This document shows positions 6,291 to 63,875 of a DNA stretch of 64,000 nt, piece by piece. The stretch comes from Eledone cirrhosa (lineage: Eukaryota), in assembly GCA_964016885.1 (NCBI GenBank), contig OZ024763.1, positions 24,490,001-24,554,000 of the forward strand. Direction: 5' to 3'. Under the pieces are notes generated by a model that had not been told where the DNA came from, made no database searches, and saw nothing but the letters and a program-made list of their open reading frames with translations. The translations under genes were made by a program, and so were the position numbers. Every line of letters starts with the position of its first letter. The stretch's first letter is position 1.

Positions 6291-6537
6291 TGTGATTATT
6301 ATGTTGATGATGATGATGATAATGATGGTGATGATTTTGATGATGATGACGGTGATAATGATGATAATTCTGATGGTTTTGATGATAACGATGATGATTA
6401 GTATAACTGTGAATATGTTGGTGGTGGTAACGACGATGATGATGATGATGATGATGATTAGTATGACTTTGAACATGTTTTTAGTGGTCGTGACCATGAT
6501 GATGATGATGATGATGATGGTGATTACGATGATAATA

Positions 6538-6895
6538 GCGCTATGGGATTCCACTATTCAAACGAACCATAGACTTGAACACATCACATGTGATAATATT
6601 GTAGTCATACACAGAAATAGGACTGAATGTCAGATTATTGACGTTCTTATCCCAGGGGACCACAAAAGAGAGTTAAAAAATATTGAAGAAAAATAACAAA
6701 ATTTGCTGTCTTGAAGATGGAAATTTCTCGAAAGAGGTTAATACCACCGCACAACATCAATATATTTCTAGTTTTTATCGGAGCTCTGGGGTCAATACCA
6801 CAAAAGCTAAGACGTGGTTTATCTGAAACAAACAAAAATTGACAAAAAGTAACAAAATATACTGACTTGAAGATTGAAATTGGGAAAACGTTACG
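6538..6895 (+). pseudogene. Restriction-like endonuclease fragment of a non-LTR retrotransposon (R4/Dong-like)
   Basis: Translation LWDSTIQTNHRLEHITCDNIVVIHRNRTECQIIDVLIPGD...EEK, continuing after frameshifts to IGALGSIPQKL. Fits the LWD-IQTD-(R)PD-IIDV-P-D-EK-KY-IGALG pattern. Follows a (GAT)n tract. Confidence 0.8.
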
Positions 6896-7019
6896 GGTTT
6901 ATGGAAGCCTAAAGATGTAATTATAATTTATCAGTGATAAAAAGTAAAATATAATGTTCAGTAACTAAAGATGTTATGTGAACTATCATACACTGGGGGG
7001 GGGGGGGGAGGAGGAGAAG

Positions 7020-11418: not shown

Positions 11419-12091
11419 TGCAAAAGTTCTATTTAAATTGTTGGTATACAACAAGCAAATATTTTATAACTGATATAAAGCACTCGACAAGTATTTGGAG
11501 TAAATATACGATATTAACAAATGGAAACTATATTTATAAAACCATATCTATTTTATTATACATATTTCAAGGATGCCATGTTAAATGATGGTATGCTTTC
11601 ATCAGACAAAATACAATATATACCAGTTTTATAATTAAATTTTGACATAACCTTTCAAAATGCAACCGTTACATTTGGAAGACATCAGGGATATTGGATT
11701 TGTTTATCTTAGTAAGTCATTGTGTTACGGAGAAGGAAAAAAGTCGGAGAGAGAAAAACCGAGAGAGAGAAAAGTGGAGAAAGAAAGAAAGGGAGATATT
11801 TCCCTTTCTTTCTTTCTCCACTTTTCTCTCTCTCGGTTTTTCTCTCTCCGACTTTTTTCCTTCTCCGTAACACAATGACTTACTAAGATAAACAAATCCA
11901 ATATCCCTGATGTCTTCCAAATGTAACGGTTGCATTTTGAAAGGTTATGTCAAAATTTATTTATAAAACTGTTATATATTGTATTTTGTCTGATGAAAGC
12001 ATACCATCATTTAACATGGCATCCTTGAAATATGTATAATAAAATAGATATAGTTTTATAAATATAGTTTCCATTTGTTAATATCGTATAT
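11419..12091 (-). mobile_element. Fold-back element family B: 588-bp near-perfect palindrome plus 85-bp tail
   Basis: Arms 11504-11797 and 11798-12091 are reverse complements with no loop; the mirrored ORFs 11660+ and 11717- in the track confirm this. Tail at 11419-11503. (TA)n flanks. Confidence 0.9.
11982..12046 (+). ncRNA. Type I hammerhead ribozyme motif (mirror copy 11549-11613, minus)
   Basis: TATTTTGT CTGATGA aagcataccat-catttaac-atggcatcctt GAAA TATGTA TA^ATAAAATA. Stem I is 8 bp and the core is intact. Confidence 0.8.
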
Positions 12092-13184: not shown

Positions 13185-13256
13185 AACACATATATATAGT
13201 TTACATAATTTACATAAATCTTTCGTTGCACATCTGCAACATCGTCAGTGGTGTTA
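13185..13256 (-). ncRNA. Hammerhead-like motif in the inverted pLTR
   Basis: Minus strand reads aacacca CTGACGA t GTTGCA gatg TGCAAC GAAA gatttatg. Core and stem II are clear; stems I and III are imperfect. Confidence 0.55.
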
Positions 13257-13440
13257 TATTTTTTCCTCCTGTTGTGTTGTATGTCTACGCCATTTTTTAT
13301 TCAGTCTGTCTATATATTTATTTATTTATTTGCTTGTTTGTTTATTTTATTTTGTCTTCTTTGCGCATGCGTTTGCGTGTGTGTATAGTGTTATGTTTGC
13401 TGTGTGACTAGTGTGTATAGTGTTGTGTCTGCTGGGTGAC

Positions 13441-13770
13441 ACAAGATGTACAGAGGGTACTTGCAGAAACATGACAACAACATACATAGGTGAGACAGCT
13501 CGTAGCATAGGTGAAAGGGTAGACCAACACTGGGGGGAACTAAAAGGACGAAAAAACGGGTCAGTACTATACGAACATGCTAGACAACAACATGACGGTA
13601 ACATAGACAACATAGAAATTAGAATAATATCTAAACATAGGAATGACCCAGCAGATAGGCAAATCAGAGAGGCCAGTGAAATAGAAATTAGAAGACCAAA
13701 GCTAAACAGAAAGAATGAGTGGAACAACAACAACACCCAAACAAACAACACTGACCTAAGAGAAGTATAA
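13441..13770 (+). pseudogene. PLE GIY-YIG endonuclease C-terminal fragment
   Basis: CTEGTC...TYIGETARSIGERVDQH...LYEHARQQH...RQIREASEI...LNRKNEW carries the YIG, R, H, E and N motifs. Confidence 0.85.
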
Positions 13771-14050
13771 ATAAGTAAATAAAATAAAATAAAATAAGAT
13801 AAATAAATACATACACAAGCACAATAACAACAAGCACATAAACACACACTAGTCACCCAGCAGACACAACACTATACACACTAGTCACACAGCAAACATA
13901 ATACTATACACACACGCAAACGCATGCGCAAAGAAGACAAAATAAAATAAACAAACAAGCAAATAAATAAATAAATATATAGACAGACTGAATAAAAAAT
14001 GGCGTAGACATACAACACAACAGGAGGAAAAAATGACCCTCCCCAAGTAT

Positions 14051-14261
<211 letters not shown>

Positions 14262-14267
14262 TATATT

Positions 14268-14485
14268 GAAGGCGTGTGGCTGAGTGGTTAGAGAATTGGA
14301 TTCGCAATCGTAAGGATGTGAGTTCGATTCCTGGACCAGGCGATGCGTTATGTCCTTGAGCAAGACACTTTATTTCACGTTGCTCCTTCTACCTGGAGTT
14401 GCGACCGATAGATAGTATTAGCAATTGGAAAGACCAACGGAAACATTGTTCCCTCGGTCCGATTTGACGAAAGTCGATCGTTCCT
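14268..14485 (+). mobile_element. tRNA-derived SINE family C
   Basis: A box TGGCTGAGTGG, B box GTTCGATTCC, central tgtccttgagcaagacacttta. Ends in gatcgttcc(ta)n. Confidence 0.85.
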
Positions 14486-14669: not shown

Positions 14670-15520
14670 GTAAGTCCGAATAATCATTTGATAAAATATA
14701 TACAGTATTTCCTCTCCCAATCAGTATAATTTAACCAGACAAAAAATCATTTAAACGCGGCTATAAGTTTAAAATGTACTCATGAAGAAATAATAGATAA
14801 ATGATACAGATACTTTTCCGCGATGTACAGCTACATGACATCTACCTCGCATTTCTCCTAGCCGGTAGAATTTGACTAGAGAAATAGTTAATTAAGCAGA
14901 ATTAGGTACAAAATTGAAGTTAGAAGAAAAAATGCACATAAATTTTACCAAAATTCTCAGTCTTTACCAACCGGCGTTTTCGTTCCACTTTTTGGATATA
15001 TCTGGTCTTGGATAAATCCACGAGGCTCGAAACTACGCAGGAGATACCTCAGACTGAACTAAGATTCTTCTATCATGAACCCCGGCAGAAGTGAATTCAA
15101 AATGGCTAAGAACCATTACGTAGCCAGTGGTCAAGACAGAAAGTTTGTGATTGGTGCCTGTCGGCGAGTAGGCTGGAGGCTAGCCGAATAATGCCTAAAG
15201 TTTTACTCAACCGTACGGGTGTATATATTAAATTCAAAGGGTATATATATATATATATATATAAATTAGACAAAGTCACAAATACATATATGCGTTTGGC
15301 AACCATTCACGGTGTGGCTCAATGAAGGATTAATTAAATAATTATTTATCAGAGCAATTTATAAAAATGTAAGTCCAAAGAATCATTAGATAAAATATAT
15401 ATTGCTCTGATAAATAATTATTTAATTAATTCTTCATTGAGCCACACCGTGAATGGTTGCCAAACGCATATATATATATTCGTGACTTTGTCTAATTTAT
15501 ATATACCCTTTGAATTTATA
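14665..15520. mobile_element. TA-flanked element combining a partial tandem repeat and a fold-back
   Basis: Inverted arms at ~15228-15360 and ~15400-15518. The direct repeat aaatgtaagtcc...atcatt.gataaaatatata occurs at ~14667 and ~15366. Confidence 0.6.
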
Positions 15521-15837: not shown

Positions 15838-16045
15838 ACGAAGGAAATGTGGTAAGGAACCAGATGGACCATAACGCACCAAATTACTCAATACTTAGGG
15901 TAGTAGAGTGGGTAATAGGAACGAGTAGGACCCAGACGGCTGAGCTCAAGCCGTTTCGACGGCTAATTCTGGACCCGACGGCTATTTCTATCCAGAATTA
16001 GCCGTCGAAACGGCTTGAGCTCAGCCGTCTGGGTCCTACTCGTTC
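15838..16045 (-). mobile_element. Family A fold-back copy
   Basis: Tail plus inverted arms carrying the HHR 3' half (GAAAcggcttgagctcagccgTC). TA flanks. Confidence 0.9.
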
Positions 16046-16104: not shown

Positions 16105-16420
16105 GATAACGGGGAATCAGTGTTGCATCAAAACACAATATATTAACATATTACATATGTTTCTCCGTCGATCAGCTCAGGGCAAGATCTGTTATAGATC
16201 GAACCCGACTCTGCAATCGCCAGTTCCTCGGCTCGATCTGTAACAGATCCTGCCCTGAGCTCATCGACGGAGAAACATATGTAATATGTTAATACATTGT
16301 CTTTTGATGCATCACTGATTCCTCGTTATACATAATATTATACTCTGCTCTGCGCGAGCATCGAGTGCACAAACGGCATACCGCATACGGACGCATTTAA
16401 TTGCAACCATACAAGAACCA
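16103..16420 (+). mobile_element. Fold-back element family F plus tail
   Basis: Arms at ~16105-16198 and ~16234-16329, tail at ~16330-16420. Related sequence at ~17390-17620, 53480-53728 and 62100-62347. Confidence 0.8.
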
Positions 16421-16808: not shown

Positions 16809-16843
16809 CCTTGAGAAGCCCAACTGGGCGAAACGGACGTAGG
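16809..16843 (+). ncRNA. Minimal hammerhead motif, U3-A8 variant
   Basis: cc TTGAGAA GCCC aact GGGC GAAA CG ga CG TA^gg. Confidence 0.55.
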
Positions 16844-17107: not shown

Positions 17108-17111
<4 letters not shown>

Positions 17112-17301
17112 AACGAGTGGGACCCCGACGGCTGAGCTCAAGCCGTTTCGACGGCTAATTCTGGACTACAGAATTAGCCGTCGAAACGGCTAGAGCTCTG
17201 CCGTCGGGGTCCTATTCGTTCCTATTACCCACTCTACTACCCTAAGTATTTAGTACTTTGGTGCGTTATGATCCACCTGGTTCCTTACCACATTTCCTTC
17301 G

Positions 17302-17302
<1 letters not shown>
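17108..17302 (+). mobile_element. Family A fold-back copy
   Basis: The short arm starts taggaacg and the long arm ends catttccttcgt(TA)n. Confidence 0.9.
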
Positions 17303-17935: not shown

Positions 17936-18037
17936 GTATAGAGCATCGAGTCCGTAACCACTTGGATTCGTTTATGCTGGTCAGTCCTTGATGTTTTGAT
18001 TGAGGGTTATGACGGATGTTTTGGAATCTGTGATAAT

Positions 18038-18223
18038 TGTTTCTACTTTAGGCACAAGGCCAGCAATTATCCCAGTGTATTACTGGTACTTTATTTTATC
18101 GACCCCGTAAGGATGAAAGGCAAAGTCAACCTCGGCGGGATTTGAACTCAGATCGGAAAGGGACGTAACTATGCTGGAAAGCACGGCGTCCGACCCTCTA
18201 CCGATACTGCCAATCCACCGCCA
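18038..18223 (-). mobile_element. SINE family D, full length with 17-bp TSD
   Basis: TSD ttggaatctgtgataat at 18021-18037 and 18224-18240. B box GAGTTCAAATCC on the minus strand. Confidence 0.95.
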
Positions 18224-19443: not shown

Positions 19444-19448
<5 letters not shown>

Positions 19449-20290
19449 TTATTGATGTATTGTTTTATTGATATTTTTTATCTGTTTGTCCCGAATCTTC
19501 TATTATCGATTTTTTATCGTATGGTTGACTGTAGACTTGTTCTATATGTGACGGTATTTTAACGATAGTTATAGCTCTGATTCATCTGAATTATTGAGCC
19601 CTCTGCCGCTCATTTCGAATTTTGTTTATCGTGAACTCGTGCGCCGATTTTTCGATACTCGATCTTTCTAATATTTTTAGCTCTGGACATAGCTATCCAC
19701 CAGTTAATTTTATTGCTCATTTTTTGTCGATTCTATTGAGTGATGAATAGCTTTTGTTTTATTTTAACATGTCTATTGAGCACTCTTATTCGATATGTGT
19801 ATTTCCACATTCCCTCGAATAGTTTTCGCGGATATAGAGGTTATCTCCCTTGTCTAATGCCATGTGCGTTTTTCACTGGTAGTTAGCCCCTTTTCCGCTA
19901 GGAAAAAAGCTCGTTGAGAAAGTAAACTCCGTTCCTCTTGCTCTAGTAGGCTTTTATATTTATATGTGAGCTGATAGAGTACAGTCTAAGGATTTACAGA
20001 AACCCATGAAGCTAGATTTAACACCTTTCTAGTGGGTCCGGGTATGATTTTACATTCATTTAAATTATTGATGTATTGTTTTATTGATATTTTTTATCTG
20101 TTTGTCCCGAATCTTCTATTATCGATTTTTTATCGTATGGTTGATTGTAGACTTGTTCTATATGTGACGGTATTTTAACGATAGTTATAGCTCTGATTCA
20201 TCTGAATTATTGAGCCCTCTGCCGCTCATTTCGAATTTTGTTTATCGTGAACTCGTGCGCCGATTTTTCGATACTCGATCTTTCTAATAT
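19444..20290. mobile_element. TA-embedded element with ~230-bp direct terminal repeats (unit ~616 bp)
   Basis: 19444-19672 is nearly identical to 20060-20290. No TG..CA ends and no ORF. Confidence 0.75.
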
Positions 20291-24849: not shown

Positions 24850-25190
24850 ATACTACTACTTTGACGCTAAACACCGCCAGTTGTAGACTGCGCATCAACA
24901 AGAGATATTTTTCTCCTCAAAGTTCGATCACCAGCAGCAAAGTTGAAAGAACAAAGATCAAGTCCAGTCCATAGGTTGACATTATCAAGCCATCGTTTTG
25001 GCTGCCGGCCTTTGCTTCTCTTACGAGTCAACCTTCCTTCCAGGCATAACCTACTCACACTATGAGTTGATCTTTTTATATGGGCGTATAGTTTGAGTAC
25101 TCTTGACTTGACACTTGATGTAATTGGTCTAAGTCTGGTAATGTTGAGCAGCTCACTGATACAGATACGGTCGCTGAGCCGCTTGCCAGT
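24850..25190 (-). pseudogene. RTE-clade LINE 3' end (post-RT C-terminus)
   Basis: RVLKLYAHIKR...LCLEGRLTRKRSKGRQPKRWLDNV...AAGDRTLRRKI fits the RTE EG-R-RGRP-RW-D...A-DR pattern. Short (GTA)n tail. Confidence 0.8.
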
Positions 25191-25654
25191 CATAAGTCTC
25201 TTGATGTGGTTCTGGATCAAATATTTGTAGCTAACATAGGAAGAAGAGTTCGATACGATAACAGGAGTGGCAGGCACGTACATCTATCACTTTAGTGTTT
25301 ACAAAACTTTGAAATGATATGTCGAACGAAACGTTACGAGGTGTTAGAGTTTAAAATGGCGCCCGTTGTAATTTATGTGAATTGCACGTTCGTTTGTGTG
25401 GCAGCGATTCAGTGTATTAATTTTGCCAGGGAATGTCTCTACATTAAATAAAGCCCTGCCAATTTTATGTCCTCTTTTAATCAATGTACTGAACTTATGA
25501 AAAACTGTGATTAGTGAAGATTGGTATAGTTATTGTGATTTATCAGCTGACGGATATACACACACACACATATATATTTTATATATAGTTTGTATGTCTG
25601 TATATATATATATGCATATATATATGTCTGTGTGTGTATATATGTAAATGAATA

Positions 25655-26518: not shown

Positions 26519-26625
26519 TATATATATATATAGGTTTCCGACTCGTGTTGGTGGGCAACCACAGTTAGAAAAAGAAATTCAGTACATTGGTAGAGTATCG
26601 GCGTCTATATGTATACATTGTATAT

Positions 26626-26945
26626 GGTGGCTGCCAACTCGTTTTCGAGTACGGCCACTACTCTATATCCATGTAGGAGAACCCCTACCGATGCGCTGAA
26701 CGAGTGTGACTTTTTAGTCCAGCCAGCGACTTGAACACTCTGGTACAAACACTACACTTGTGACAATTATTGACACATAGTGCTGGGCCCATGGTACCAT
26801 GTGACGACAAGTGCAGAGAGATCTCCAGATATAAAGCAATGCCTGTGCCGTGAAGCTTTTATAGTGAGCAAAGGCACTGCACAAAGCCAGTCCCACTCTC
26901 TTAACCAAGATGATATTTACCAAAAAGAAGAACAAGTCAACATCA
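26626..26945 (-). mobile_element. Short element with an RTE-type LINE 3' end (family E)
   Basis: Minus strand encodes CSVCTRVFKSLAGLKSHTRSAHR* (C2H2 finger), then a short UTR. Other copies at 33097 and 44256. Confidence 0.75.
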
Positions 26946-27030
26946 TTGAATACAATCAGGGTTGCAGGTGTTATATCAGAGTTTTCCTTCTCCTAGAATT
27001 CTGCCTTGACAAAGGCTAAGGGGTCATCTA

Positions 27031-27086: not shown

Positions 27087-27185
27087 AGGAATTCTACAGA
27101 CCTTGAACTATTTTATTCGTATGAAATCATCAGGAGTGTTGATGATTTCAAACAAATGGAACACTCCAAGTGCTGTAGAAATCAA
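27087..27185. mobile_element. Family G degenerate hairpin with HHR remnant
   Basis: ttctacag...tcatcaggag / tgatgatttc...ctgtagaa. Related to 31293, 38843 and 42855. Confidence 0.55.
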
Positions 27186-32998: not shown

Positions 32999-33096
32999 CA
33001 CACACACACACACACAGACGCACACATACACTACATACATACATACATACATACATACATACATACATACATACATACATACATACATACATACAT

Positions 33097-33420
33097 GGTG
33101 GCTGCCAACTCGTTTTGGAGTACGGCCACTACTTTATATCCATGTAGGAGAACCCCTACCGATGCGCTGAACGAGTGTGACCTTTTAGTCCAGCCAGCGA
33201 CTTGAAAACTCTGGTACAAACACTACACTTGTGACAATTACTGACACATAGTGCTGGGCCCATGGTACCATGTGACGACAAGTGAGTGCAGAGAGATCTC
33301 CAGATATAAAGCAATGCCTCTGCCGTGAAGCTTTTATAGTGACAAAGGCACTGCACAAAGCCAGTCCCACTCTCTTAACCAAGATGATATTTACCAAAAA
33401 GAAGAACAAGTCAACATCAT
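33097..33420 (-). mobile_element. Family E copy with (ATGT)n tail
   Basis: Near-identical to 26626-26945; encodes CHKCSVCTRVFKSLAGLKGHTRSAHR*. Confidence 0.8.
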
Positions 33421-34057: not shown

Positions 34058-34095
<38 letters not shown>

Positions 34096-35376
34096 CGAAG
34101 GAAATGTGGTAAGGAACCAGGTGGACCATAACGCACCAAAGTACTCAATACTTGGGGTAGTAGAGTGGGTAATAGGAACCAGTAAGACCCCGACGGCTGA
34201 GCTCAAGCCGTTTCGACGGCTAATTCAGGACTAAATGAAAATTTATCCTGGTATTTAAATAGCCGATCTTCTCAAGGGGTAATTCCATATATGGTCAAAG
34301 TGATTGTCAAAAATCAGTAGTAATTCTGTGATTGCAAATTAGTAGGGGAGATGGTGGCTAAACCTGCCAGTAGGAGAAAGAGGGGAGGGGGCGGAGTAGA
34401 CCCAATCAAGCGTTGGTAGTGCCAGCTACAGCTGGGTATGAGGTCAAAGAAGATACTGGGGAGGGGGAGGGGGAGGAAGTCGGAACGGTAGGTAGAACAA
34501 TGGGGGGTAAAAATATATATGAAAGAAAAAATACTGAGAGTGAAGAAAAGCGGATAAGTGTAAAGAAAAAAGTAAAGCAAGTTCTACGACCTAGGTCTCT
34601 AGCTATTGTTGGGCTAGAATAAATAAATAAAGAAAGAAAGAAAGAAGTAAAGAAAGAAATAAAGAAATAACGAAATAAGTAAATGAACTAGGTGGGACGG
34701 AATAGGCAAGGACCCTTTTAACAGGTATAAGTACGTAAATGATACGGTGACGGGTCAACAAATGGGGCCAAAATACTAAAGAGACTACCACGAAATAAAT
34801 AATAAAGGTTTCTATCCCGGGCACAATGCCAGCAACCACCCAGTGCAGCAAAGTGAACTAGTACGAGATAATAATTCTGAGTCCCGAAAAAAATATATAC
34901 TAATGCTAACTCTAAAAGATCTAAAACAAGCTACATGAAAGTTCGTACGAAGTAAAGGTAGAATACGGAAAAATAAATTCAGAATCCACCCCGCCCAAAA
35001 GAAAAAGCGAAGAAAGAAATACTGAAACGAGAAAATAAGGCATAAGTGCCACTAAGAAATATAGAAGGCACGGAGAATAGTGGGAGCGGTCGGAAAAAGG
35101 GGGCAAGTATCCGGGGTCTAAACCAACTGCTATAAAAGGCGGAGTCCGCCAAATCTATCATAGACTAGGGAAGGGGGTGGGGGTACTAAGGCTACAAGGG
35201 GCCAAAGGGCAGCCTCGGGTGGGCGAGAAAAGACGCCGACAAAGGAGAAGAGCTGGGGTAGAAGGACTAAGGAGGGAAGAGGGGAAGGAAATAAAGGAAG
35301 CGATAAAAGAATAAAAAGATCTTACGTCTCCCTTGGCAAGCAGGGGTTACCCATTGCAAAATCGGCAAGTGGGGTG

Positions 35377-36262
35377 TTATAGCCCTAGTCTACCCCCCGG
35401 GTCATTATGGGGTTTGAGGGCGAGGTAAGTCCTACGCAATCTATGTTTACATGCAGTAACCAGTTCATCTTTCTTGTTTAGGAGTTGGTCCGTCGAAAAC
35501 AGCATTTGTAAAGTTTCCTCCGAGCATAAATTGCACGGACGGCGTCCTCCCGTGTAAGAGTTGGCTCTGGACAGTAATCTCCAAGTAAGATCATAGGTGA
35601 TGTTGTTGTCCTTGAGGTCCCATATGTGGCCCGAAAGTGTAGTGGCGTGACGCCGGGCCGGGTTTCGGAAGGTATGTCTATGTTGGTATAGCCGGGTCTT
35701 GAAGTCACATGCGGTAAGTCCTATATAGGCTTTGTTGGAGGTATCCGTCCTCACGTTGCACTGGTACATCACATTACGGTCTCTGCATCTATTGTCGAGT
35801 GGGCAAATGGATCTATCCGGACAGTTACACCTCCTGGTCGGTTCTCCACTGCTATTTAGGTTATTTCTGCCATCGGGGTTGAGTTTTTGTTGTTAGAGGA
35901 GACGATGTTTTGTGCGAAGTTTGGTGTAGTGCTGTAAGAGAGTTTGATGGTATTTTTGTTAATTATGTTGTGGTAGCGGTGTTGTAATGGGAAGTGTTTT
36001 TCAATGAGCCTAAAGAATAGTTTCCCAATGGGAGTTGTCACCTCTGCGTTGTGGAGAGGATTGAACCATGTTACATTGCGTGAGCGGCGGAGTCTCCTGC
36101 TGGTTCCGCTAATGGGAGCTGGACAGTAGGATATATCCTCCCGGAAACCACTCCGCTTGAGGGCCTGGTTGTAATAAGGCGCATGTTCATCGAATATCCG
36201 CTCATTAGCTGACAAACGGGATATGCGGAGGGAGATGTTTTTGACCAGGTTGTTTGTGATGG
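35377..36262 (-). pseudogene. PLE ORF C-terminus: thumb/linker, Cys motif and GIY-YIG endonuclease (Nematis/Neptune-like), disrupted
   Basis: YNQALKRSGF...VTWFNP...TIKLSYS, then CNCPDRSICPLDNRC...VMYQC...AYIGLTACDFKTRLYQH...LSGHIWDLK...CNLCSEE...LLNKKDELVTACKH. Frame break near 35856. Confidence 0.9.
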
Positions 36263-36403
36263 CACTACCAACGCTTGATTGGGTCTACTCCACCCCCTCC
36301 CCTCTTTCTCCTACTGGCAGGTTTAGCCACCATCTCCCCTACTAATTTGCAATCACAGAATTACTACTGATTTTTGACAATCACTTTGACCATATATGGA
36401 ATT

Positions 36404-36497
36404 ACCCCTTGAGAAGATCGGCTATTTAAATACCAGGATAAATTTTCATTTAGTCCAGAATTAGCCGTCGAAACGGCTTGAGCACAGCCGTCGGGGT
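36404..36497 (+). ncRNA. Hammerhead ribozyme, U3-A8 core with long stem II (element-sense copy 34187-34280, minus)
   Basis: ACCCC TTGAGAA ga-t-CGGCTAtt...aatTAGCCG-tc GAAA CGGCT tgagcac AGCCG TC^GGGGT. All three stems pair. Confidence 0.8.
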
Positions 36498-36536
36498 CTT
36501 ACTGGTTCCTATATATATATATATATATATATATAT

Positions 36537-36921
36537 CTAAAGGAACGATCGACTTTCGTCAAATCGGACCGAGGGAACAATGTTTCTGTTGGTCTTTCCA
36601 ATTGCTAATACAATCTATCTGTCGCAACTCCAGGTAGAAGGAGCAACGTGAAATAAAGTGTCTTGCTCAAGGACATAACGCATCACCTGGTCTAGGAATC
36701 GAACTCACAACCTTACGATTGCGAATCCAATTCTCTAACCACTCAGCCACACGCCTTCACTTTGAAGTGGACCAGGAGATGCGTTATGTTCTTGAGCAAG
36801 ACACTTTATTTCACGTTGCTCCTTCTACTTGGAGTTGCGACCGATAGATAGTATTAGCAATTGGAAAGACCAACGGAAACACTGTTCCCTCGGTCCGATT
36901 TGGCGAAAGTCGATCGTTCCT
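36537..36921. mobile_element. SINE family C in fold-back arrangement
   Basis: Full copy on minus (36537-36758) lies head-to-head with a 5'-truncated plus copy (36768-36921). TA flanks. Confidence 0.85.
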
Positions 36922-36934
36922 CATATATATATAT

Positions 36935-37256
36935 GTAGAGGTTATATTTAATTTGTTGGGATACAACAAGCAAACTATTTTTATAACAGATATAAAGCAC
37001 TCAACAAATTATTGTAGTAAATATACAATATATTAACAAATGGAAACTATATTTATAAAACCATATTTATTTCATTATACATCTTTCAAGGGCCACCAGA
37101 GCTTTTTTAAGGGTATGTCAATATTTATTTATAAAACTAACCTATATTATATTTTATCTGATGAAAGCGCACCATATTTTGCTCTGGTGGCCCTTGAAAT
37201 ATGTATAATGAAATAAATATGGTTTTATAAATATAGTTTCCATTTGTTAATATATT
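36935..37256 (-). mobile_element. Family B fold-back copy (HHR at 37150-37215, plus)
   Basis: Tail plus inverted arms. tattttat CTGATGA aagcgcacca...tggtggccctt GAAA tatgta TA atgaaata. Confidence 0.85.
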
Positions 37257-37347
37257 CTATATATATATATGTATGTATGTGTATATATATGTGTATATAT
37301 TTATATACATATATATATATATATGTATATGTATGTATGTGGATATA

Positions 37348-38665: not shown

Positions 38666-38832
38666 GTATATGTATATACATATATATATATATATATATA
38701 CACATACACAAATTCAGAAACCAGTTTGTGTTCTACCTGTCTGGATATATATATATATGTATATGTGTGTGTGTGTGTGTGTGTATGTGTGTGCGTGTGT
38801 GCGCGTGCATGTGTATGTGTGTGTGTGTTATA

Positions 38833-38948
38833 TTATAGAAATAACTTCTATAGGACTAGAACTGTTTCATTCCTTAGAAGACATGATGGTTTCTGATTTT
38901 TTACGAATAAAAACAGTTCGAGTTCTGTAGGAGTCATTTCTATAATAA
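38833..38948. mobile_element. Family G hairpin
   Basis: tattatagaaataacttctataggactagaactgttt / aaacagttcgagttctgtaggagtcatttctataata. Confidence 0.7.
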
Positions 38949-39579: not shown

Positions 39580-39966
39580 AAGGTGGATTGGTACTATCGG
39601 TAGAGAGTCGGACGCCATGCTTTGCAGCAAAGAGTTACGGCCCTTGCCATTCTGAGTTCAAATCCCGCCGAGGTTAACTTTGCCTTTCATCCTTACGGGG
39701 TCGATAAAATAAAGTACCAGTAATGCACTGGGATAATTGCTGGCCTTGTGCCAAAAGTAGAAACAATTATTTTTAAAGGCGGTGGATTGGCAGTACCGGT
39801 AGAGGGTCGGACACCATGCTTTCCAGCAGAGTTACGTCCCTTTACGATCTGAGTTCAAATCCCGCCGAGGTTGACTTTTCCTTTCATCCTTACGGGGTTG
39901 ATAAAATAAAGTACCAGTAATGCACTGGGTAATTGCTGGCCTTGTGCCTAAAATAGAAACAATTAT
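39580..39966 (+). mobile_element. Two tandem SINE family D copies
   Basis: Copies at 39580-39770 and 39778-39966, each with GAGTTCAAATCC and an agaaacaattat end. Confidence 0.92.
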
Positions 39967-41482: not shown

Positions 41483-41675
41483 ACGAAGGAAATGTGGTAA
41501 GGAACCAGGTGGACCATAACGCACCAAAGTACTCAATATTTGAGGTAGTAGAGTGGGTAATAGGAACCCGTAAGACCCCGACAGCTGAGCTCAAGCCGTT
41601 TCGACGGCTAATTCTGGACAAGAATTAGCCGTCGAAACGGCTTGAGCTCAGCTGTCGGGGTCTTACTGGTTCCTA
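41483..41675 (-). mobile_element. Family A fold-back copy
   Basis: Tail plus perfect inverted arms around a ~5-nt loop. The short arm ends in ggttccta. Confidence 0.9.
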
Positions 41676-41720: not shown

Positions 41721-42105
41721 ATACGATATTAACAAATGGAAACTATATTTATAAAACCATAATTATTTCATTATACATATTTCAAGGACACCCAGTCAAA
41801 TTATGGTGCGCTTTCATCAGATAAAATATAATATAGATCAGTTTTATAAATAAATATTAACATTTTTTAGGGGTGTGTCAATATTTATTTATAAAACTGA
41901 TCTATATTATATTTTATCTGATGAAAGCACACCATAATTTAACTTGGTGTCCTTGAGATATGTATAATGAAATAAATATGGTTTTATAAATATAGTTTCC
42001 ATTTGTTAATATCGTATTTTTACTCCAAATATTTGTCGAGTGCTTTATATCAGTTATAAAAATATTTGCTTGTTGTATCCCAACAATTTAAATAGAACTT
42101 TTACA
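41721..42105 (+). mobile_element. Family B fold-back copy (tail on the right)
   Basis: Arms at ~41721-41863 and ~41876-42017. HHR is intact in the left arm (minus) and has GAGA in the right arm. Confidence 0.88.
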
Positions 42106-42118
42106 TATATATATATAT

Positions 42119-42327
42119 CTTTAACGATCGACTTCCGTCAAATCGGACCGAGGAAACAATGTTTCCATTGGTCTTTCCAATTGCTAATACTATCTATCGG
42201 TCGCAACTCCAGGTAGAAGGAGCAACGTGAAATGAAGTGTCTTGCTCAAGGACATAACGCATCGCCCGGTTCTGGAATCAAACTCACAACCTCACGATTG
42301 CGAATCTAACCACTCAGCCACAGGCCT
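42119..42327 (-). mobile_element. SINE family C
   Basis: Reverse complement of 14268-14485. TA flanks. Confidence 0.85.
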
Positions 42328-42349
42328 TTATTTATATATATATATATAT

Positions 42350-42388
42350 ATAATAAAATATAATTGATCACAAGAATATCTATTTTGT

Positions 42389-42425
<37 letters not shown>

Positions 42426-42567
42426 CAAAATAGATATTCTTGTGATCAATTATATTTTATTATACATATTCCAGAGGTACTGAGTTAAGTTCAACAGTAT
42501 GTCCTCATCAGATAAAATAAAATGATACATCACATACCCTGACATAGTACATCGTTAAGCTTCAATA
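42350..42567. mobile_element. Family B-related pieces in inverted orientation, with degenerate HHR
   Basis: 42351-42390 is the inverse of 42423-42462. Minus strand reads tattttat CTGATGA ggac...ctct GGAA tatgta TA ataaaata. Confidence 0.55.
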
Positions 42568-42900: not shown

Positions 42901-43493
<593 letters not shown>

Positions 43494-44174: not shown

Positions 44175-44255
44175 ATCTATCTCTATCTCTCTTTCTCTCT
44201 CTCTTTCTCTCTCTCTATCCCCCCTCTCTCTCGCTCTCTCTTTCTCCGTATATAC

Positions 44256-44493
44256 GGTGGCTGCCAACTCGTTTTCGAGTAGTGCCACTACTTTACATCC
44301 ATGTAGGAGAACCCCTACTGATGCGCTGAACGAGTGTGACTTTTTAGTCCAGCCAGCGACTTGAAAACTCTGGTACAAACACTACACTTGTGACAATTAC
44401 TGACACATAGTGCTGGGCCCATGGTAGCATGTGACGACAAGTGCAGAGAGATCTCCAGATATAAAGCAATGCCTGTGCCGTGAAGCTTTTATA
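44256..44493 (-). mobile_element. Family E copy, truncated
   Basis: Matches 26626-26863. Confidence 0.8.
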
Positions 44494-44504
44494 TATACAT
44501 ACAT

Positions 44505-44688
44505 AGATAGTGATGAGGTTTGCTTGAAGCATTGTGGAATAATAAAAATGGTCCTTTTGGAAGCCCCAACAATGCAGATGGGTAAATCTTCGGTTAACAG
44601 AATCAGGTGGTAATGAGAGAGAGAGATCTAAGATAGATTCTATTACCCGGAGATTTACCGATCTGCATTATTGAGGCTTCCAAAACGA

Positions 44689-44696
<8 letters not shown>
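44505..44696. mobile_element. Fold-back element with tail (unassigned family)
   Basis: Arms at ~44545-44606 and ~44636-44696 (ttttggaagccccaacaatgcagat / atctgcattattgaggcttccaaaa). TA flanks. Confidence 0.7.
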
Positions 44697-45005: not shown

Positions 45006-45052
<47 letters not shown>

Positions 45053-45240
45053 TAAGTGGAAGCTTAGTAAAATCGAAGCTTTGGCTGTGGGCAAGCAAAG
45101 TCGACCTACAATAGGAATGAGTTAGCAAAGCACTCAATAAGGGTAGGTCCTTAGAGTAATAACATACGTTTAAATAGCTTGACAAATAGAACAATGCTGT
45201 AGGCAAGCAACCACGTGAACAACACAATATATAACTACTC

Positions 45241-45303
45241 CATTACCAAAGGTTTCAGGACCCTAGACAATATTAACATACGTCCAGTTCGTTCATCAGA
45301 CAT
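45241..45303 (-). ncRNA. Hammerhead-like motif
   Basis: tgt CTGATGA acgaaCTGGAC...GTCTAGggtcct GAAA CC ttt GG TA^atg. Stem I is weak. Confidence 0.5.
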
Positions 45304-45309
45304 TTATGT

Positions 45310-47285: not shown

Positions 47286-47681
47286 CATATATACATATAT
47301 ATACATATATACATATATATATAGTAGTTTGATCTTGCTACAGATATCCAGGTGGGTAGAGCACTCAGTTCGTGGTCCGAGTTATATATAAGACACAACA
47401 GTGACAATGTGCTGATAGTGAAGATGTGTTGGGTTTAACCACCAACTCACTCAGTCGGCCATAGTGTGGCGAGAGTGATTGAGAGAGAGAGAGGGAGAGA
47501 GAGTGGGAGGGAGAGGGAGGGGGCACACACACATATATATAAATGTAAAGACCCGATGAGGGAAAGTTAAAGAATTGTAGACGTAAAGGAAAAAAAGTAT
47601 GGGATGGATAGTGAACGGGTATAGAGAATAGATAGGGAGAGTGATAGAGCAAGAGAGAGGGAGATGATATGTATGAGAGAG

Positions 47682-47730
<49 letters not shown>

Positions 47731-47732
47731 TG

Positions 47733-47766
<34 letters not shown>

Positions 47767-48292
47767 CTAGGAGCGACAGAGGGAGAGAGAATACCAGAAG
47801 CGACAGAGACAAAGAATACCAGAAGCGAGAGAGAGAGTGTTACAGAGAAAGAGAGAGTACCAGAAGAAACAGAGAGAGTTACAAACAGAGAGAGAGAGAG
47901 ACAGCGTACCAGAAGCGACAGAGAGAGTGGAGAGAGAAAGAGAGTGAGAACAGAGTTATAGAGAGAGTACCAGAAGCGTCAGAGAGAGAGGAGAGAGAGA
48001 ACGGATATATATGGACAAAGTAAAAGACAGAAAGTGTGAGAAAGAGAGAGAGAGAGGGAGTGTGAGAAAGAAAGAAACAGATAAAGAAATCTGATTATGT
48101 AAATCTAAGATGGAGTCCATTTAAAATAGAAGGGAAGAAAGAGTAGGTTTAAAAGAAAGACCAGCATCTATCAATTCTGCATAATTTCCCGTGAACTATA
48201 CTATAGGTGCATGTCACTGATTCCATGTAATGGTAAACTGCACGTAGTCACAGCTCCACTCTATCAATTACAAGGTCCCGTTAACTATCCTG

Positions 48293-48323
<31 letters not shown>

Positions 48324-48369
48324 TATCTCTGTATATAATATCTCACTCACCACCACTCTACTCTCTCTC

Positions 48370-48850
48370 TCTCTGTCTACTATCTCGCCACTATCTCTCT
48401 CTCTCTCTGTCTTACTATCTCGCCACCATCTCTCTCTCTCTGTCTTACTATCTCGCCACCATCTCTCTCTCTCTTCTCTCTGTCTTACTATCTCGCCACC
48501 ATCTCTCTCTCTCTGTCTTACTATCTCGCCACCATCTGCTCTCTCTATCTGTCTTACTATCTCACCACCACCATCTCTCTCTCTCTCTCTGTCTTACTAT
48601 CTCGCCACCATCTCTCTCTCTCTCTCTCTCTGTCTTACTATCTCGCCACCCATCCTCTCTCTCTCTCTGGTCTACTATCTCGCCACCATCTCTCTCTCTC
48701 TCTGTCTAACTATCTCACCACCATCTCTCTCTCTCTCTCTGTCTTACTATCTCGCCACCATCTCTCTCTCTCTCTCTCTCTGTCTTACTATCTCGCCACA
48801 TCTCTCTCTCTCTCTGTCTTACTATCTCGCCACCATCTCTCTCTCTCTCT
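48370..48850. repeat. Minisatellite (gtcttactatctcgccacca(tc)n); longer in copy 2 (56765-57655)
   Basis: Directly visible. Confidence 0.9.
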
Positions 48851-48896
48851 TAATTTCTCTCTCTCTCTTAATTTCTCACACTCTCCTTACTTTCTT

Positions 48897-48967
<71 letters not shown>

Positions 48968-49087
48968 GTCTCTGTCTCTGTCTCACACCATCATCTCTCT
49001 CTCTCTTAATTTCTCCTCCTCTCTCTCCCTATCTCACCACCATCTCTCTCTCTCTCAATTTCTCTGTCTCTCTCTATCTCTTTCACA

Positions 49088-49140
<53 letters not shown>

Positions 49141-49281
49141 ACCACCCACCAACTCTCTCTCTCTCTCTCTCTTTCTCTCACTCTCTCTCTCTCTCTCTCT
49201 TTTCTCTCTCTCACTCTCTCTCTCTTTCTCTCACTCTCTCTTTCTCTCTCTCACCCTTTGTCTATCTTTCTCTCTCTCTTA

Positions 49282-49339
<58 letters not shown>

Positions 49340-49673
49340 ACATACGTACACATATACACATAGATATATAATTAGAAAAAATGTTTCGTTTACATGTTTT
49401 ATGTATTTCTTTATTTTCGACGCGCGTTTCACAGATGATTGGCTGTGACGCACGTTTCACAGATGATTGGCTCAACGTCACCTTTGGAATCTATGGCCTA
49501 GCCTGCAGCATCGACTCACACACACAACGCACACACTAAAAACAAGATAATTTGTACTGCCTCTCTGGTTTTTGTTCTCTGATCATTTATTAAACTATAT
49601 ATATATATATATTATATTTTGTGGTGGCCATGTTGCTAATATTGCCAATAAAAAGAAACACACACGCATCATA

Positions 49674-49759
<86 letters not shown>

Positions 49760-51051
49760 CGTACATGCATATATATATATGCATCCATATATACACACAG
49801 GCAGGCTATTATACATGTATATATTCATAGGAATATACATGTGTTAATTTGTAATGAAATTACGGAAATAAGATTTATTTATCAATATCATATAACAGTT
49901 ATCTCTATCTCTATCTCTCTTTTTATACACACATATACACACACACAGATATATATACATACATGTGTATGTGTGTGTGTGGGTGTACTTGTATGTATGT
50001 GTGTAGGTGAATATAAAGATATTTACTGAGAAACACATGTATAATTGTATATATGTATGTATGTATGCATGTATGCATGTATGTATCTGTGTGTGTATGT
50101 ATGTATGTATGTATGTATGCATGCGTATATGTATATGTTTGTATACATATATATGTATATTAATGATCAGAAAGTAGAAATGGGTTTCGAATGTATAAAT
50201 GAAAATGTATATTGTATATATATGTATATATATATATATATTCATATATTCATATGTATATTAAAATATATGTCTCTGTGTGTATACATATTTGTGTGTG
50301 TGCATCTTTATGTATGTATGCATACACAAATACCTACACACCTACACGCAAGCATACATGCATGCCGGAACGAACATGTATACATACACACATGCGTTCA
50401 CACACATGCACAGCTTGAAAAATGTCGGATACACAAGGCAGCCATGATATAAATTCGAAGCCATTAGAATCAGACCGGTAGCAATTAAACGCCACCGTTG
50501 CCGCCATCTTTTATCATGTTTTTCTTGGCGAATCTCCTTGCGTTGTCTTTGTTGTTTTTTATAATTCTACTTTCACTTTCGCTTTCACAGTTTCAGTTTT
50601 CCTTCAAAATTTTCTACATCTTTATGGTGTTTCCTTTGATTGTTTTCATAGTTTCATGTGTATTTTTGAACAAATATATTCTAAAATATGAGTTAAGATC
50701 AATTTAGGAAATTAATAATAATAAACACAAACACACAAACACACACACTCACACATACATACACACCCACTACCGCACATACATACATAAACACGCACAC
50801 ACAACGCCGCATACGGAAACACATAGACACCGCCGCAAATACACACACACACACACACACAGCTGCACACATTTACACACACACATGCGTGGTACATCTT
50901 TTTTCCCTCCCTTTCTTTATTTTATTGCACTGTGCTATTTTGCGATTAAATTATTCCAAATGAAATTGAAAAATGAAAATTTTTAAAGATAAATTATATA
51001 CATATATATATATATATATATATACACCTGTATATATATATATACATATAC

Positions 51052-51137
<86 letters not shown>

Positions 51138-51412
51138 TTGTGTGTGTGTGTGTATAGATATGTATACACATATATATATATATACACACTCATATATATA
51201 TATATATGTGGATGTATATATGTATATATATGAATATGTTTAAGTTTTCCTCTTTAGGACGGATGAGATAAACAATTTGCAGTGGATGTTTTGAGTACGG
51301 GGCGAAGGTGTAGGTTTGTGTGTATGTATCTGCGCGTATGTGGGGTGGGAGTGATGGGGAGTTATATATACATATATATACATATATATATAAATGTATA
51401 TATGTATGTATA

Positions 51413-51454
<42 letters not shown>

Positions 51455-51699
51455 CATAGAGATAGATATATATGCACACATATATATACATATATAAATG
51501 TATATATATATGTATATATATATGTATATATATATGTATATATATACATATATATAAATACATATATATGCATACATATATATACATACATATATATATG
51601 TATATATATATGTGTATATATATACATATATATATATATATATACATATATATGCATACATATATATACATGCATATATATATGTATATATATATGTAT

Positions 51700-51732
<33 letters not shown>

Positions 51733-51825
51733 CACATATTTATATATATATATACACACATATTTAATTATATAAATATATATATGTATATACACATATA
51801 TATATATATAGACTTACATAAACAC

Positions 51826-51903
<78 letters not shown>

Positions 51904-52428
51904 CATATATATATATTCATATATACATACATATATATAACCTTTCCAAACACACATATCGTACACACCCACGCACACAAAACACACACCTTACACACAC
52001 ACACAGGCTACACCCCCACACATACACACACTCGCTACATACACACACACACACCTTGGCCTAATCATAAACTACGTACCATCTACTCCTTTGCCTTCCT
52101 CCTCACTCACTCACTTCATTGCCACTCTTCACACCTCTTATTCTCACTCATACCAACACCCTTGCTGTACATTCTCCTCTATCTCGCTCCGTACCTCTTA
52201 CAGCCACCCACCACTCTCTGCTGCATCTACTCACCTCCCACTACACCTCCTCCTTCAATCTCCTCCGCACCACATCTCTACCTCCCACCACCCCTCATCA
52301 CCTCTTCGCTTTGTTTATTCAAATAATTATATCGACCTATTGTATTCAATTAGAGATTTCCTAACAACATAAAATGTAAATAGTTTGTATAATTCATCTT
52401 TGTTCGAAAATACACACACTTCTCTCTC

Positions 52429-52485
<57 letters not shown>

Positions 52486-52977
52486 CTCTCTCTCTACACA
52501 CACACACGCACACGCATAAACACACTTTTCTCTCCACAAACACACACACACTTCTCTCTCCACACACGCACTCACACACACACACAACACACACACTTCT
52601 CTCTCCACACACACACACGCATACACACACTTCTCTCTCCACACACACACACACACGCATACACACACACACATACACAACACTTCGCATTCCACATACA
52701 TACACACACATACACACTTCTCTCTCCACACACACACATACACATACACACACAATTGTCTCTCTCTTACACACACATACATACACACTTGGCTCTCCCC
52801 ACATACACACACACACTTCTCTTTCTCCACACACACATATACACATATACACACTTGGCTCTCTCCACACACACATGCACACACACTTGGCTCTCTCCAC
52901 ACAAACACGTCACTTCTCACACACATATATAACACATATGTGTGGGAGTCTGTAAACGTATAGGATATACATATAAC

Positions 52978-53158
52978 TGTTTCTACTTTAGGCACAAGGC
53001 CAGCAATTACCCAGTGCATTACTGGTACTTTATTTTATCGACCCCGTAAGGATGAAAGGCAAAGTCAACCTCAGCGGGATTTGAACTCGTAAAGGGACGT
53101 AACTATACTGGAAAGCATGGCGTCCGACCCTCTACCGATACTGCCAATCCACCGCCCC
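52978..53158 (-). mobile_element. Full-length SINE family D with 16-bp TSD, absent from the duplicate copy
   Basis: TSD aggatatacatataac at 52962-52977 and 53159-53174. Single empty site at 61768-61783. Confidence 0.95.
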
Positions 53159-53231
53159 AGGATATACATATAACACGCATACATATACCTCATATTTAAA
53201 CACACACACATATGTATGTGTATATAAATAT

Positions 53232-53288
<57 letters not shown>

Positions 53289-53343
53289 TAGATAGATAAA
53301 ATAACAGGCGGCTCGACTGGTGTAAATCCTTGAAAGGTTTATT

Positions 53344-53401
53344 ATACTATGATTATTTCAATGATTGGGTTCCATATGAATCCGGTGATATCATCAGGTA
53401 T
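53344..53401 (-). ncRNA. Hammerhead motif (duplicate at 61948-62005)
   Basis: ATAC CTGATGA tatcaccggattcatatggaacccaatcatt GAAA TAATCA TA^GTAT. The duplicate has palindromic stem III ATGATCAT. Confidence 0.6.
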
Positions 53402-53422
53402 TCGAAATATAATATAATATTC

Positions 53423-53466
<44 letters not shown>

Positions 53467-53479
53467 TTGTGTGTGTGTG

Positions 53480-53728
53480 TAAAATCAAACATGTATACAC
53501 GTTATAACATATCCGAGGAGCTTCCGATTCCAGAGTCAGGTTCGATCATTAATAAATCGTTCCTCGAGCTGATCGACAGTGAAACATATGTAATACGTAA
53601 TGAAATATGTATATGATGCAACACTGATTTGTTGTTCTCTTATATATTAATACTATGCATACTCTGATACACAAGAGCATGGATTGCTCACTGGGTATAC
53701 CGCTAATGGACGGAACTGAGTTGCTCCT
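53480..53728 (+). mobile_element. Family F copy with long-stem-II HHR-like fold (duplicate 62100-62347)
   Basis: catat CCGAGGA gcttccgatt...gagctgatcgacagt GAAA CATATG TA atacg, followed by tgatgcaacactgatt as at 16103. Confidence 0.65.
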
Positions 53729-53744
53729 ATATATATATATATAT

Positions 53745-53924
53745 AATACCTATATATATATATATATACCTATATATATATATATATATATAATACCTAT
53801 ATATATATAATACCTATATATATATATATATATATATAATACCTATATATATATATAATACCTATATATATATATAATACCTATATATATATATATATAA
53901 TACCTATATATATATATAATACCT

Positions 53925-53956
<32 letters not shown>

Positions 53957-55149
53957 ATACCTATATATATATATAATACCTATATATATATATATATATA
54001 TATAATACCTATATATATATATAATACCTATATATATATATAATACCTATATATATATATATATATAATACCTATATATATATATATAATACCTATATAT
54101 ATATATAATACCTATATATATATATATATATATAATACCTATATATATATATAATACCTATATATATATATATATATATATAATACCTATATATATATAT
54201 AATACCTATATATATATATAATACCTATATATATATATAATACCTATATATATATATAATACCTATATATATATATATATATATATAATACCTATATATA
54301 TATATAATACCTATATATATATATAATACCTATATATATATATATATAATACCTATATATATATATATAATACCTATATATATATATAATACCTATATAT
54401 ATATATAATACCTATATATATATATATATATATAATACCTATATATATATATAATACCTATATATATATATATAATACCTATATATATATATATAATACC
54501 TATATATATATATAATACCTATATATATATATAATACCTATATATATATATATATATATATAATACCTATATATATATATAATACCTATATATATATATA
54601 ATACCTATATATATATATATATAATACCTATATATATATATATAATACCTATATATATATATAATACCTATATATATATATATATATATAATACCTATAT
54701 ATATATATAATACCTATATATATATATATATATATATAATACCTATATATATATATAATACCTATATATATATATAATACCTATATATATATATATATAA
54801 TACCTATATATATATATATAATACCTATATATATATATAATACCTATATATATATATATATATAATACCTATATATATATATAATACCTATATATATATA
54901 TATAATACCTATATATATATATATAATACCTATATATATATATAATACCTATATATATATATATATATATAATACCTATATATATATATAATACCTATAT
55001 ATATATATATATATATATAATACCTATATATATATAATACCTATATATATATATAATACCTATATATATATATATATAATACCTATATATATATATATAA
55101 TACCTATATATATATATAATACCTATATATATATATATATAATACCTAT
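53745..55149. repeat. Compound satellite (aatacc(ta)n); also at 62362-63100
   Basis: Directly visible; runs into the gap. Confidence 0.95.
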
Positions 55150-55349: not shown

Positions 55350-63100
<7,751 letters not shown>

Positions 63101-63124
63101 ACCATTATATATATATAATATATA

Positions 63125-63236
<112 letters not shown>

Positions 63237-63514
63237 CGTGTGTATTACCTATACATATATATATATGATAATACCTATATATATATAGGTATTATATACA
63301 TATATATGTATACGTAATACACATATATATATATATATATATATATAAATATATATAACATATATATATATATATATGATATATTATATATATATATATA
63401 TAATATATATATAGAAATATATATATATATATATAATATATATATATATATATTATATATATATATATAATATATATATAATATATATATATATATATTA
63501 TATATATAATATAT

Positions 63515-63638
<124 letters not shown>

Positions 63639-63683
63639 AAAAATATAATATATATATATATATATTATATATATATATATAAT

Positions 63684-63729
<46 letters not shown>

Positions 63730-63818
63730 ATATATATATAATATATATATATAATATATATATATATAATATATATATATATATAATATATATATATATA
63801 TAATATATATATATATAA

Positions 63819-63875
<57 letters not shown>

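Follow-up and report, generated by a model that had tools for sequence, protein, structure and literature searches.

Octopus OR1 and OR2 are named as CORE-SINEs in the available portions of PMC4824008 and PMC4758252. CORE-SINEs such as Cgi_CORE_1 share with the family described here (family C, from a 64,000-nt stretch of Eledone cirrhosa DNA that we call the window) a tRNA head that contains A and B boxes and precedes the 5' CORE segment. Family C differs from CORE-SINEs in its 97-nt tail, in the TA on both sides of its copies, in having no visible TSD and in one head-to-head inversion. It may already have been catalogued without a Penelope-like element (PLE) interpretation, possibly as a described octopus SINE. 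Non-autonomous PLEs form a second point of reference and include, as far as the excerpts of these sources go, the Chlamys-type MRC1 (PMC8557442), the short Penelope of Heliconius (PMC6685494) and animal retrozymes (10.64898/2026.07.22.740005). Family C resembles them in being non-coding, in the probable similarity of its 3' end to a PLE-type repeat, in its insertion into microsatellites and in having an inverted truncated copy. It is unlike them in its tRNA-derived internal promoter, its CORE body and its precise 5' ends, and it has no tandem pseudo-LTR (pLTR), hammerhead or long tail.

Schistosomes also carry SINE-like repeats, SM-alpha and Sj-alpha. These combine a Pol III-type promoter with a PLE-pLTR-like module and are the nearest SINE–PLE precedent; the available portion of PMC6765202 names no PLE as their partner. 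They have an active hammerhead and tandems, and family C has neither. Helenus, Ajax and Cassandra, TRIMs with Pol III promoters, likewise place a small-RNA-derived promoter on non-LINE machinery, but theirs is LTR machinery (LTRs, PBS, PPT and a 4–5 bp TSD, according to the part of PMC10886601 that was available), of which family C shows nothing. Hydra-clade PLEs share (TA)n insertion and inverted 5'-truncated copies with family C, and almost all families of the clade insert in (TA)n (PMC8557442, in the sections available). Unlike family C, they are autonomous and bear a hammerhead, and the printed 3' end of Hydra-1_Obim is by eye unlike the family C tail. A search of the full-text literature returned no description of a PLE-mobilised tRNA SINE in the titles, opening lines of abstracts and text portions retrieved.

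Judging from sequence comparison, we put at roughly 0.6 the probability that family C, as a Pol III-type SINE, owes its mobility to a Penelope-like RT/GIY-YIG enzyme that targets TA and acts in trans. The sample behind this estimate is three family C loci, one fold-back and a 25-nt motif. A sequence-only reading of the same DNA had already proposed PLE mobilisation, which is still the most likely reading on changed grounds: the argument now runs through a repeat that we call element E, not through a 7-nt match to the PLE family A. We judge the original idea probably correct, with another partner family as the better candidate.

Family C is a 218-nt SINE with a tRNA head and a CORE-type body, present in the window as three loci and four arms. 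The first locus, C1 (14267–14484, plus strand), is full-length, has TA on both sides and carries the majority base at 153/153 compared sites. The second consists of C2a (36542–36759, minus strand), a full-length arm with tRNA head, CORE-like body and 97-nt tail, and C2b (36768–36920, plus strand), an inverted copy that runs from SINE position 66 with its 3' end outward. The third, C3 (about 42123–42330, minus strand), is near full-length, with an 8-nt deletion in the head and TA on both sides. No further copies were found in the 64,000-nt window by blastn-short or nhmmer, no direct (tandem) repeat is present at any of the three loci, and a search of GTDB contigs for stray host DNA gave no matches.

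The Pol III A box of C2a lies at 36739–36749 and its B box at 36696–36704, both on the minus strand (SINE positions 11–21 and 56–64). This A-plus-B pattern, at positions 11 and 56, arose in only one of 20,000 shuffled heads; neither ARAGORN nor Rfam scored the head as a tRNA. By eye, family C is colinear with oyster Cgi_CORE_1 (PMC4758252, supplement file 4), with 29/37 identical positions in the head and 24/27 at the start of the CORE; in C2a the latter falls in the 5' part of the CORE-like central domain (36640–36682, minus strand, bounds approximate). The three main arms start within a few bases of position 1, that is, with precise 5' ends. C1 contains no TTTT run, and no arm has poly(A). 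Family C is thus a SINE by the structural part of the SINEBase definition (<700 bp, non-coding, repeated, with an A/B-box head) and, on the by-eye comparison of the 5' CORE segment that follows the head, has the structure of a CORE-SINE. It is not a retrozyme, being without a type I hammerhead and without tandem organisation. From a typical non-autonomous PLE it departs in the tandem pLTR and the tail, and it is like one in target and inversion; the one-arm tail of 30–40 nt typical of PLEs is absent, with only 0–5 extra bases at the ends.

Overall, the 97-nt tail is no more structured than its shuffles (z −0.46). Neither a full hammerhead core nor an Rfam ribozyme was detected in it. An active ribozyme in the tail was also considered and rejected. 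Only a half-core pattern is present, which 68 of 20,000 shuffles also showed, which was chosen post hoc and which element E does not retain.

At the second locus (36537–36922), the full copy and the inverted 5'-truncated copy are joined head-to-head with both 3' ends outward, a geometry described for PLEs in the available part of PMC8557442. The fold-back reported by the sequence-only reading is real: its arms are identical at 144/153 sites and are separated by an 8-nt linker (36760–36767, plus strand). The linker is made of 3 nt followed by a snap-back, 5 nt that repeat the start of the SINE in inverted orientation, or alternatively represents the stub of a 60-nt internal deletion. Five extra bases (36537–36541, minus strand) separate the conserved 3' end of C2a from the TA tract. 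An inverted 5'-truncated copy adjoining the 5' end, a trait of non-autonomous PLEs, is thus found at one of three family C loci. The differences at 9/153 sites rule out an assembly echo. L1-style twin priming is ruled out as well, since the 3' end is present in both arms.

Each arm of the fold-back carries five private changes relative to C1, and no derived base is common to both, which modestly favours duplication at insertion over later copying of DNA; a simple Poisson model gives a Bayes factor of 5.9. This counts against an explanation that we consider quite improbable, in which family C is an ordinary SINE residing in abundant TA, the fold-back came later through a template switch at the DNA level, from one flanking tract of self-complementary TA to the other, and element E is matched by chance. 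A DNA copy would also duplicate one 3' junction, whereas the two junctions here differ (5 vs. 2 extra bases). The snap-back micro-palindrome at the junction would fit such a switch, as would the existence elsewhere in the window of a TA-centred 98% palindrome (42353–42460).

Near-pure TA flanks family C on both sides at all three loci (12-nt TA score 0.91–1.0), so the placement of the family within (TA)n (at 14268, 36537 and 42119), claimed from the sequence alone, is borne out against a background of 12.3% (7859 of 63,753 random sites in the window with TA on both sides). At the second locus, the left (TA)n flank (36510–36536) is common to the end of a family A PLE, and the right (TA)6 flank (36923–36934) abuts the tail of a family B fold-back. 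The frequency of TA on both sides, at 12.3% of sites and in 2/11 copies of the family D SINE, is what an ordinary SINE in abundant TA would need, but at that background three of three has a probability of about 0.002 (0.123 cubed). The family C and family D proportions (3/3 vs. 2/11) differ with Fisher p = 0.027. No unique TSD is visible at family C loci, as had been noted, but this absence is uninformative because any TSD would be invisible within (TA)n. Microsatellite insertion with an indiscernible TSD, another trait of non-autonomous PLEs, is observed at 3/3 loci.

The family D SINE has 11 copies (e.g., 18037–18208, 39595–39961 and 52978–53142), with TSDs of 11–17 nt; one direct tandem is among them. 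The central segment of the family is probably Meta-domain-like. The clean 14–17 bp TSDs attributed to it were seen by eye at 18020, 42560 and 52955 (17, 14 and 16 nt, respectively), and across the family a non-TA shared flank word of at least 11 nt accompanies 6/11 copies. However, 2/11 copies have TA on both sides, as family C does. None of the 11 copies is folded back, and the contrast in fold-backs between the two SINE families was not significant (1/3 loci vs. 0/11 copies, window only; Fisher p = 0.21).

The window as a whole is microsatellite-rich animal DNA; masking for short tandem repeats and N removed 29,202 of its 64,000 bases. In an Rfam scan of the whole window, the 150 matches listed, out of 505, were microsatellites or palindromes. 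A near-identical tandem block lies on the two sides of an N gap (47311–55140 vs. 55350–63823), probably an assembly duplicate or haplotig. This block (about 47.3–55.1 kb and 55.3–63.8 kb) was excluded from most counts; fold-backs were counted up to 53,000, and TA edges and family D copies up to 55,300, avoiding the duplicated segment. We also observed a repeat of about 320 nt with TA-dinucleotide flanks and imperfect terminal inverted repeats (26621–26946, 33092–33420 and 44250–44493), possibly a MITE.

The resemblance originally drawn between the 3' end of family C and the pLTR end of family A amounts to a 7-nt suffix. The string TCGTTCCTA occurs at the end of C1 (14478). It is also present in three copies of family A (17216, plus strand; 17116 and 15924, minus strand). 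In family A it is where the inverted arm, which has no tail, terminates; the main arm is about 80 nt longer. The exact TCGTTCC/TA ending is present only in C1, with 2–5 other bases before TA in C2a, C2b and C3. The chance of the suffix match is 0.009 against shuffled tails and 0.038 against random 20-mers of the window, and a TCC/TA edge is common (7/132 TA-edge ends). We rejected family A as donor of the tail, the match being a 7-nt suffix only and not at family A's true 3' end; the resemblance exists but is weak.

A stronger candidate emerged when the family C tail was compared, end-anchored, with all 132 non-C TA-edge sequences of the window. The best match was element E, with a score of 15 (the next was 7), and none of 5000 shuffles reached 15. 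The last 25 nt of family C and the TA junction of E are identical at 20/25 positions, in register and without gaps; this 3'-terminal motif, common to E, lies at 36543–36567 in C2a (minus strand), and the same 25-nt motif lies at 36895–36919 in C2b (plus strand). Under a cross-family empirical null, 2 of 6291 pairs scored at least 15, both microsatellite-like, which gives a chance of up to about 0.04 over 132 targets, and to that extent accommodates a coincidental match, as the template-switch explanation supposes. This null was used in place of one from random 60-mers of the window (345/5000), into which matches to self and to members of the same family had entered. Free local alignment does not make the match significant (33/300 shuffles), blastn-short and nhmmer missed it, an unanchored search found no homolog of the tail elsewhere in the window, and similarity upstream of the motif is marginal (72/2000). 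The motif pattern occurs four times in family C, twice in E and nowhere else in the window, a specificity that is partly circular because the pattern was built from C and E. Both ends keep, by eye, a CGA-NNN-TCG triloop, on which two families cannot show covariation.

Other comparisons of the tail were negative. There was no match to a further TA-embedded repeat, element F (228/500 and 249/500 shuffles), nor to published 3' ends of octopus Naiad and Hydra elements, by eye or with six 9–10-mer probes. Motif probes gave no matches in the Craig 2021 supplement with two 12-mers and one 10-mer, and one unrelated match among six 9–10-mers; there were none in four of the eight files of the Petrosino 2022 supplement and none in the Nishihara 2016 supplement without file 1.

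Decayed LINE fragments lie at about 6534–6920 (plus strand) and 24870–25283 (minus strand), outside TA and not folded back. We take the former to be a Dong/R4-like endonuclease end and the latter an RTE-like C-terminus. Their presence lends something to the view, which we find unlikely yet worth weighing, that family C is an ordinary SINE dependent on a LINE, and that this LINE (of Dong-R4, Tx1, CR1, RTE or Hero type) uses (TA)n as its target or priming site. On this account, the 3' stem-loop with a short repeat tail would be the usual signal of a stringent-type LINE, and the inversion would reflect a pair of RNAs, one primed on each strand of a palindromic target; two different RNAs would allow the 6% difference between the arms. 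The terminal 41 nt of family C do fold as a hairpin (z −2.0; 9/200 shuffles). The tail, however, shows no similarity to either LINE fragment of the window, neither these fragments nor the 11 family D copies include a fold-back, and the best anchored end match is the PLE-like element E. We know of no LINE that routinely makes pairs with both 3' ends outward. Further in favour of a LINE partner, SINEs are defined as LINE-dependent (PMC3531059, in the portion available), and Dong-R4, CR1, Tx1 and RTE have been recently active in Octopus vulgaris (PMC13282606, as given in its Table 1).

Element E (19445–20290, plus strand) is a non-coding partial tandem in TA and the candidate relative of the partner on the PLE reading. 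Its repeats (19445–19674 and 20061–20290) are identical at 229/230 positions. It contains no ORF, so that no autonomous partner was identified in the window. An LTR/TRIM assignment for E was rejected, with no TG..CA ends, PBS or PPT visible by eye. The junction of the partial tandem mirrors that of a hammerhead-bearing element at 43038–43493. Element F (45049–45309, minus strand) is TA-embedded and pLTR-like and contains both halves of a hammerhead core with stems II and III and a weak stem I, a minimal form of the kind that is listed for Hydra elements. The E repeat aligns with F at a score of 62 (27.5 ± 4.5 in shuffles; 0/500 reached it). The partial tandem and the homology to the hammerhead-bearing F suggest that E is itself a PLE. 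In the resulting chain, sequence similarity makes the link from C to E probable and the link from E to F strong, and F is tied to PLEs by its hammerhead and context.

The surroundings of the second family C locus are rich in PLE sequence. On its left is the family A element (34095–36509, minus strand), with a truncated, frameshifted RT-thumb/GIY-YIG ORF (35377–36284), an inverted arm (36260–36509), a hammerhead with a U3-A8 core and a tail of about 80 nt. Its ORF at 35377–35892 has CxCx5C linker, CxxC and CxH motifs as well as GIY-YIG at the C terminus, so that by sequence it fits the definition of the Hydra clade (GIY-YIG with CxCx5C, CxxC and CxH, and RT upstream). A threshold of E ≤ 0.001 gives the ORF 5463 relatives, and an RT motif is present in the longer ones; a separate search for longer homologs accepted none of 377 candidates, and Pfam gave no RT or GIY-YIG match to family A and nothing informative. 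On its right is family B, a hammerhead-bearing fold-back (36935–37257) whose tail faces C2b.

A census of the window yielded 19 inverted self-matches, from which we dropped three (two cross-locus pairs and one 40-nt hairpin). Besides the family C fold-back there are 15 others, eight flagged as hammerhead-like by script and a ninth with a core and a GIY-YIG-like ORF, so fold-backs in the window are mostly a PLE product. Five TA-associated fold-backs without a script-detected hammerhead (15264–15497, 16106–16329, 27089–27183, 38831–38947 and 44551–44689) are probably decayed PLE ends. The palindrome at 42353–42460 is centred on a TA tract and arranged tail to tail, the opposite geometry to the other fold-backs.

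Several features of these PLEs are worth recording. One-arm tails in families A and B are 80–99 nt long (34095–36509, 15838–16045, 17110–17302, 41483–41673, 11420–12086, 36935–37257 and 41724–42104), longer than the 30–40 nt described for PLEs. Short PLE-like arms at 37103, 41861, 19675 and about 375 start with a splice-acceptor-like T5-6-A(A)G, a motif that the start of the published Hydra-1_Obim consensus resembles. A second PLE type (13258–14054), probably Neptune-like in clade, has a GIY-YIG-like ORF fragment (13408–13770) and an inverted repeat of 99% identity; its hammerhead core is at 13248. It lies upstream of C1 across 212 nt of TA. A U3-A8 core pair, in place of C3-G8, is found in the hammerheads at 36409–36491 (plus strand), 34275–34193 (minus strand) and 16811–16841 (plus strand), a variant absent among the cores listed in PMC8557442 File S2.

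For two of the four 3' ends of family C, the tail of a family B fold-back lies opposite, only 12–14 nt of TA away (36920–36941 and 42102–42123). The two arrangements are not a segmental duplicate, because the two B elements differ in the truncated arm; they may reflect shared site preference or local density. This proximity, together with the wedging of the C2 locus between families A and B, is what one would expect if family C generally depended on a LINE and its copies here were captured opportunistically at nicks made by PLE endonuclease in a PLE-dense TA neighbourhood. We regard such capture as very improbable: it leaves the terminal motif common with E unexplained, and C1, more than 20 kb away, has the same TA context.

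Under the preferred reading, mobilisation by a PLE enzyme, the family would have arisen when a CORE-SINE exchanged its tail for a sequence whose end resembles the pseudo-LTR of a PLE that targets TA. Its RNA would be transcribed by Pol III from the head into the flanking TA, and the PLE protein would bind the terminal stem-loop and nick (TA)n. Reverse transcription would begin internally, at or just past the 25-nt motif, leaving 0–5 variable junction bases. Nicking and extension of both strands of the self-complementary TA would produce a full copy and an inverted truncated copy with 3' ends outward; alternatively, the RT may snap back at the end of the first cDNA. That the partner is a dedicated autonomous PLE, with the 3' motif derived from an E/F pLTR and the insertion behaviour of PLEs inherited with it, seems to us slightly better than an even bet. 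Such a partner would be an autonomous relative of E and F, probably Hydra-like, and not the adjoining family A copy.

Biochemical work offers a counterpart to these steps. In the sections of PMC11167929 available, a PLE protein acts in vitro on AT-rich DNA, both strands of which it cuts and extends, and the purified protein starts reverse transcription inside an RNA stem-loop without target homology, the hammerhead being dispensable. This behaviour would fit a Pol III RNA that lacks a terminator and has its 3' boundary defined by the RT, as well as the variable junctions and the outward-facing pair. The same sections place the protein-binding RNA of an anole PLE within the first 172 nt of the ORF, and the PLE reading fits less well here because family C has no ORF-start binding signal and no long tail.

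SINEs are by definition parasites of LINEs. LTR passengers with a Pol III promoter and PLE passengers lacking a tRNA head are known. If our reading is correct, family C would supply the combination still missing, in which a PLE carries a tRNA/CORE SINE, and would show that the tail swapping of CORE-SINEs can cross retroelement classes. The 25-nt end shared with element E would in that case point to a minimal cis signal by which RNAs are reverse-transcribed in trans by a PLE, and family C would provide a natural minimal substrate for studying the RNA signal of the PLE RT and the origin of inverted structures.
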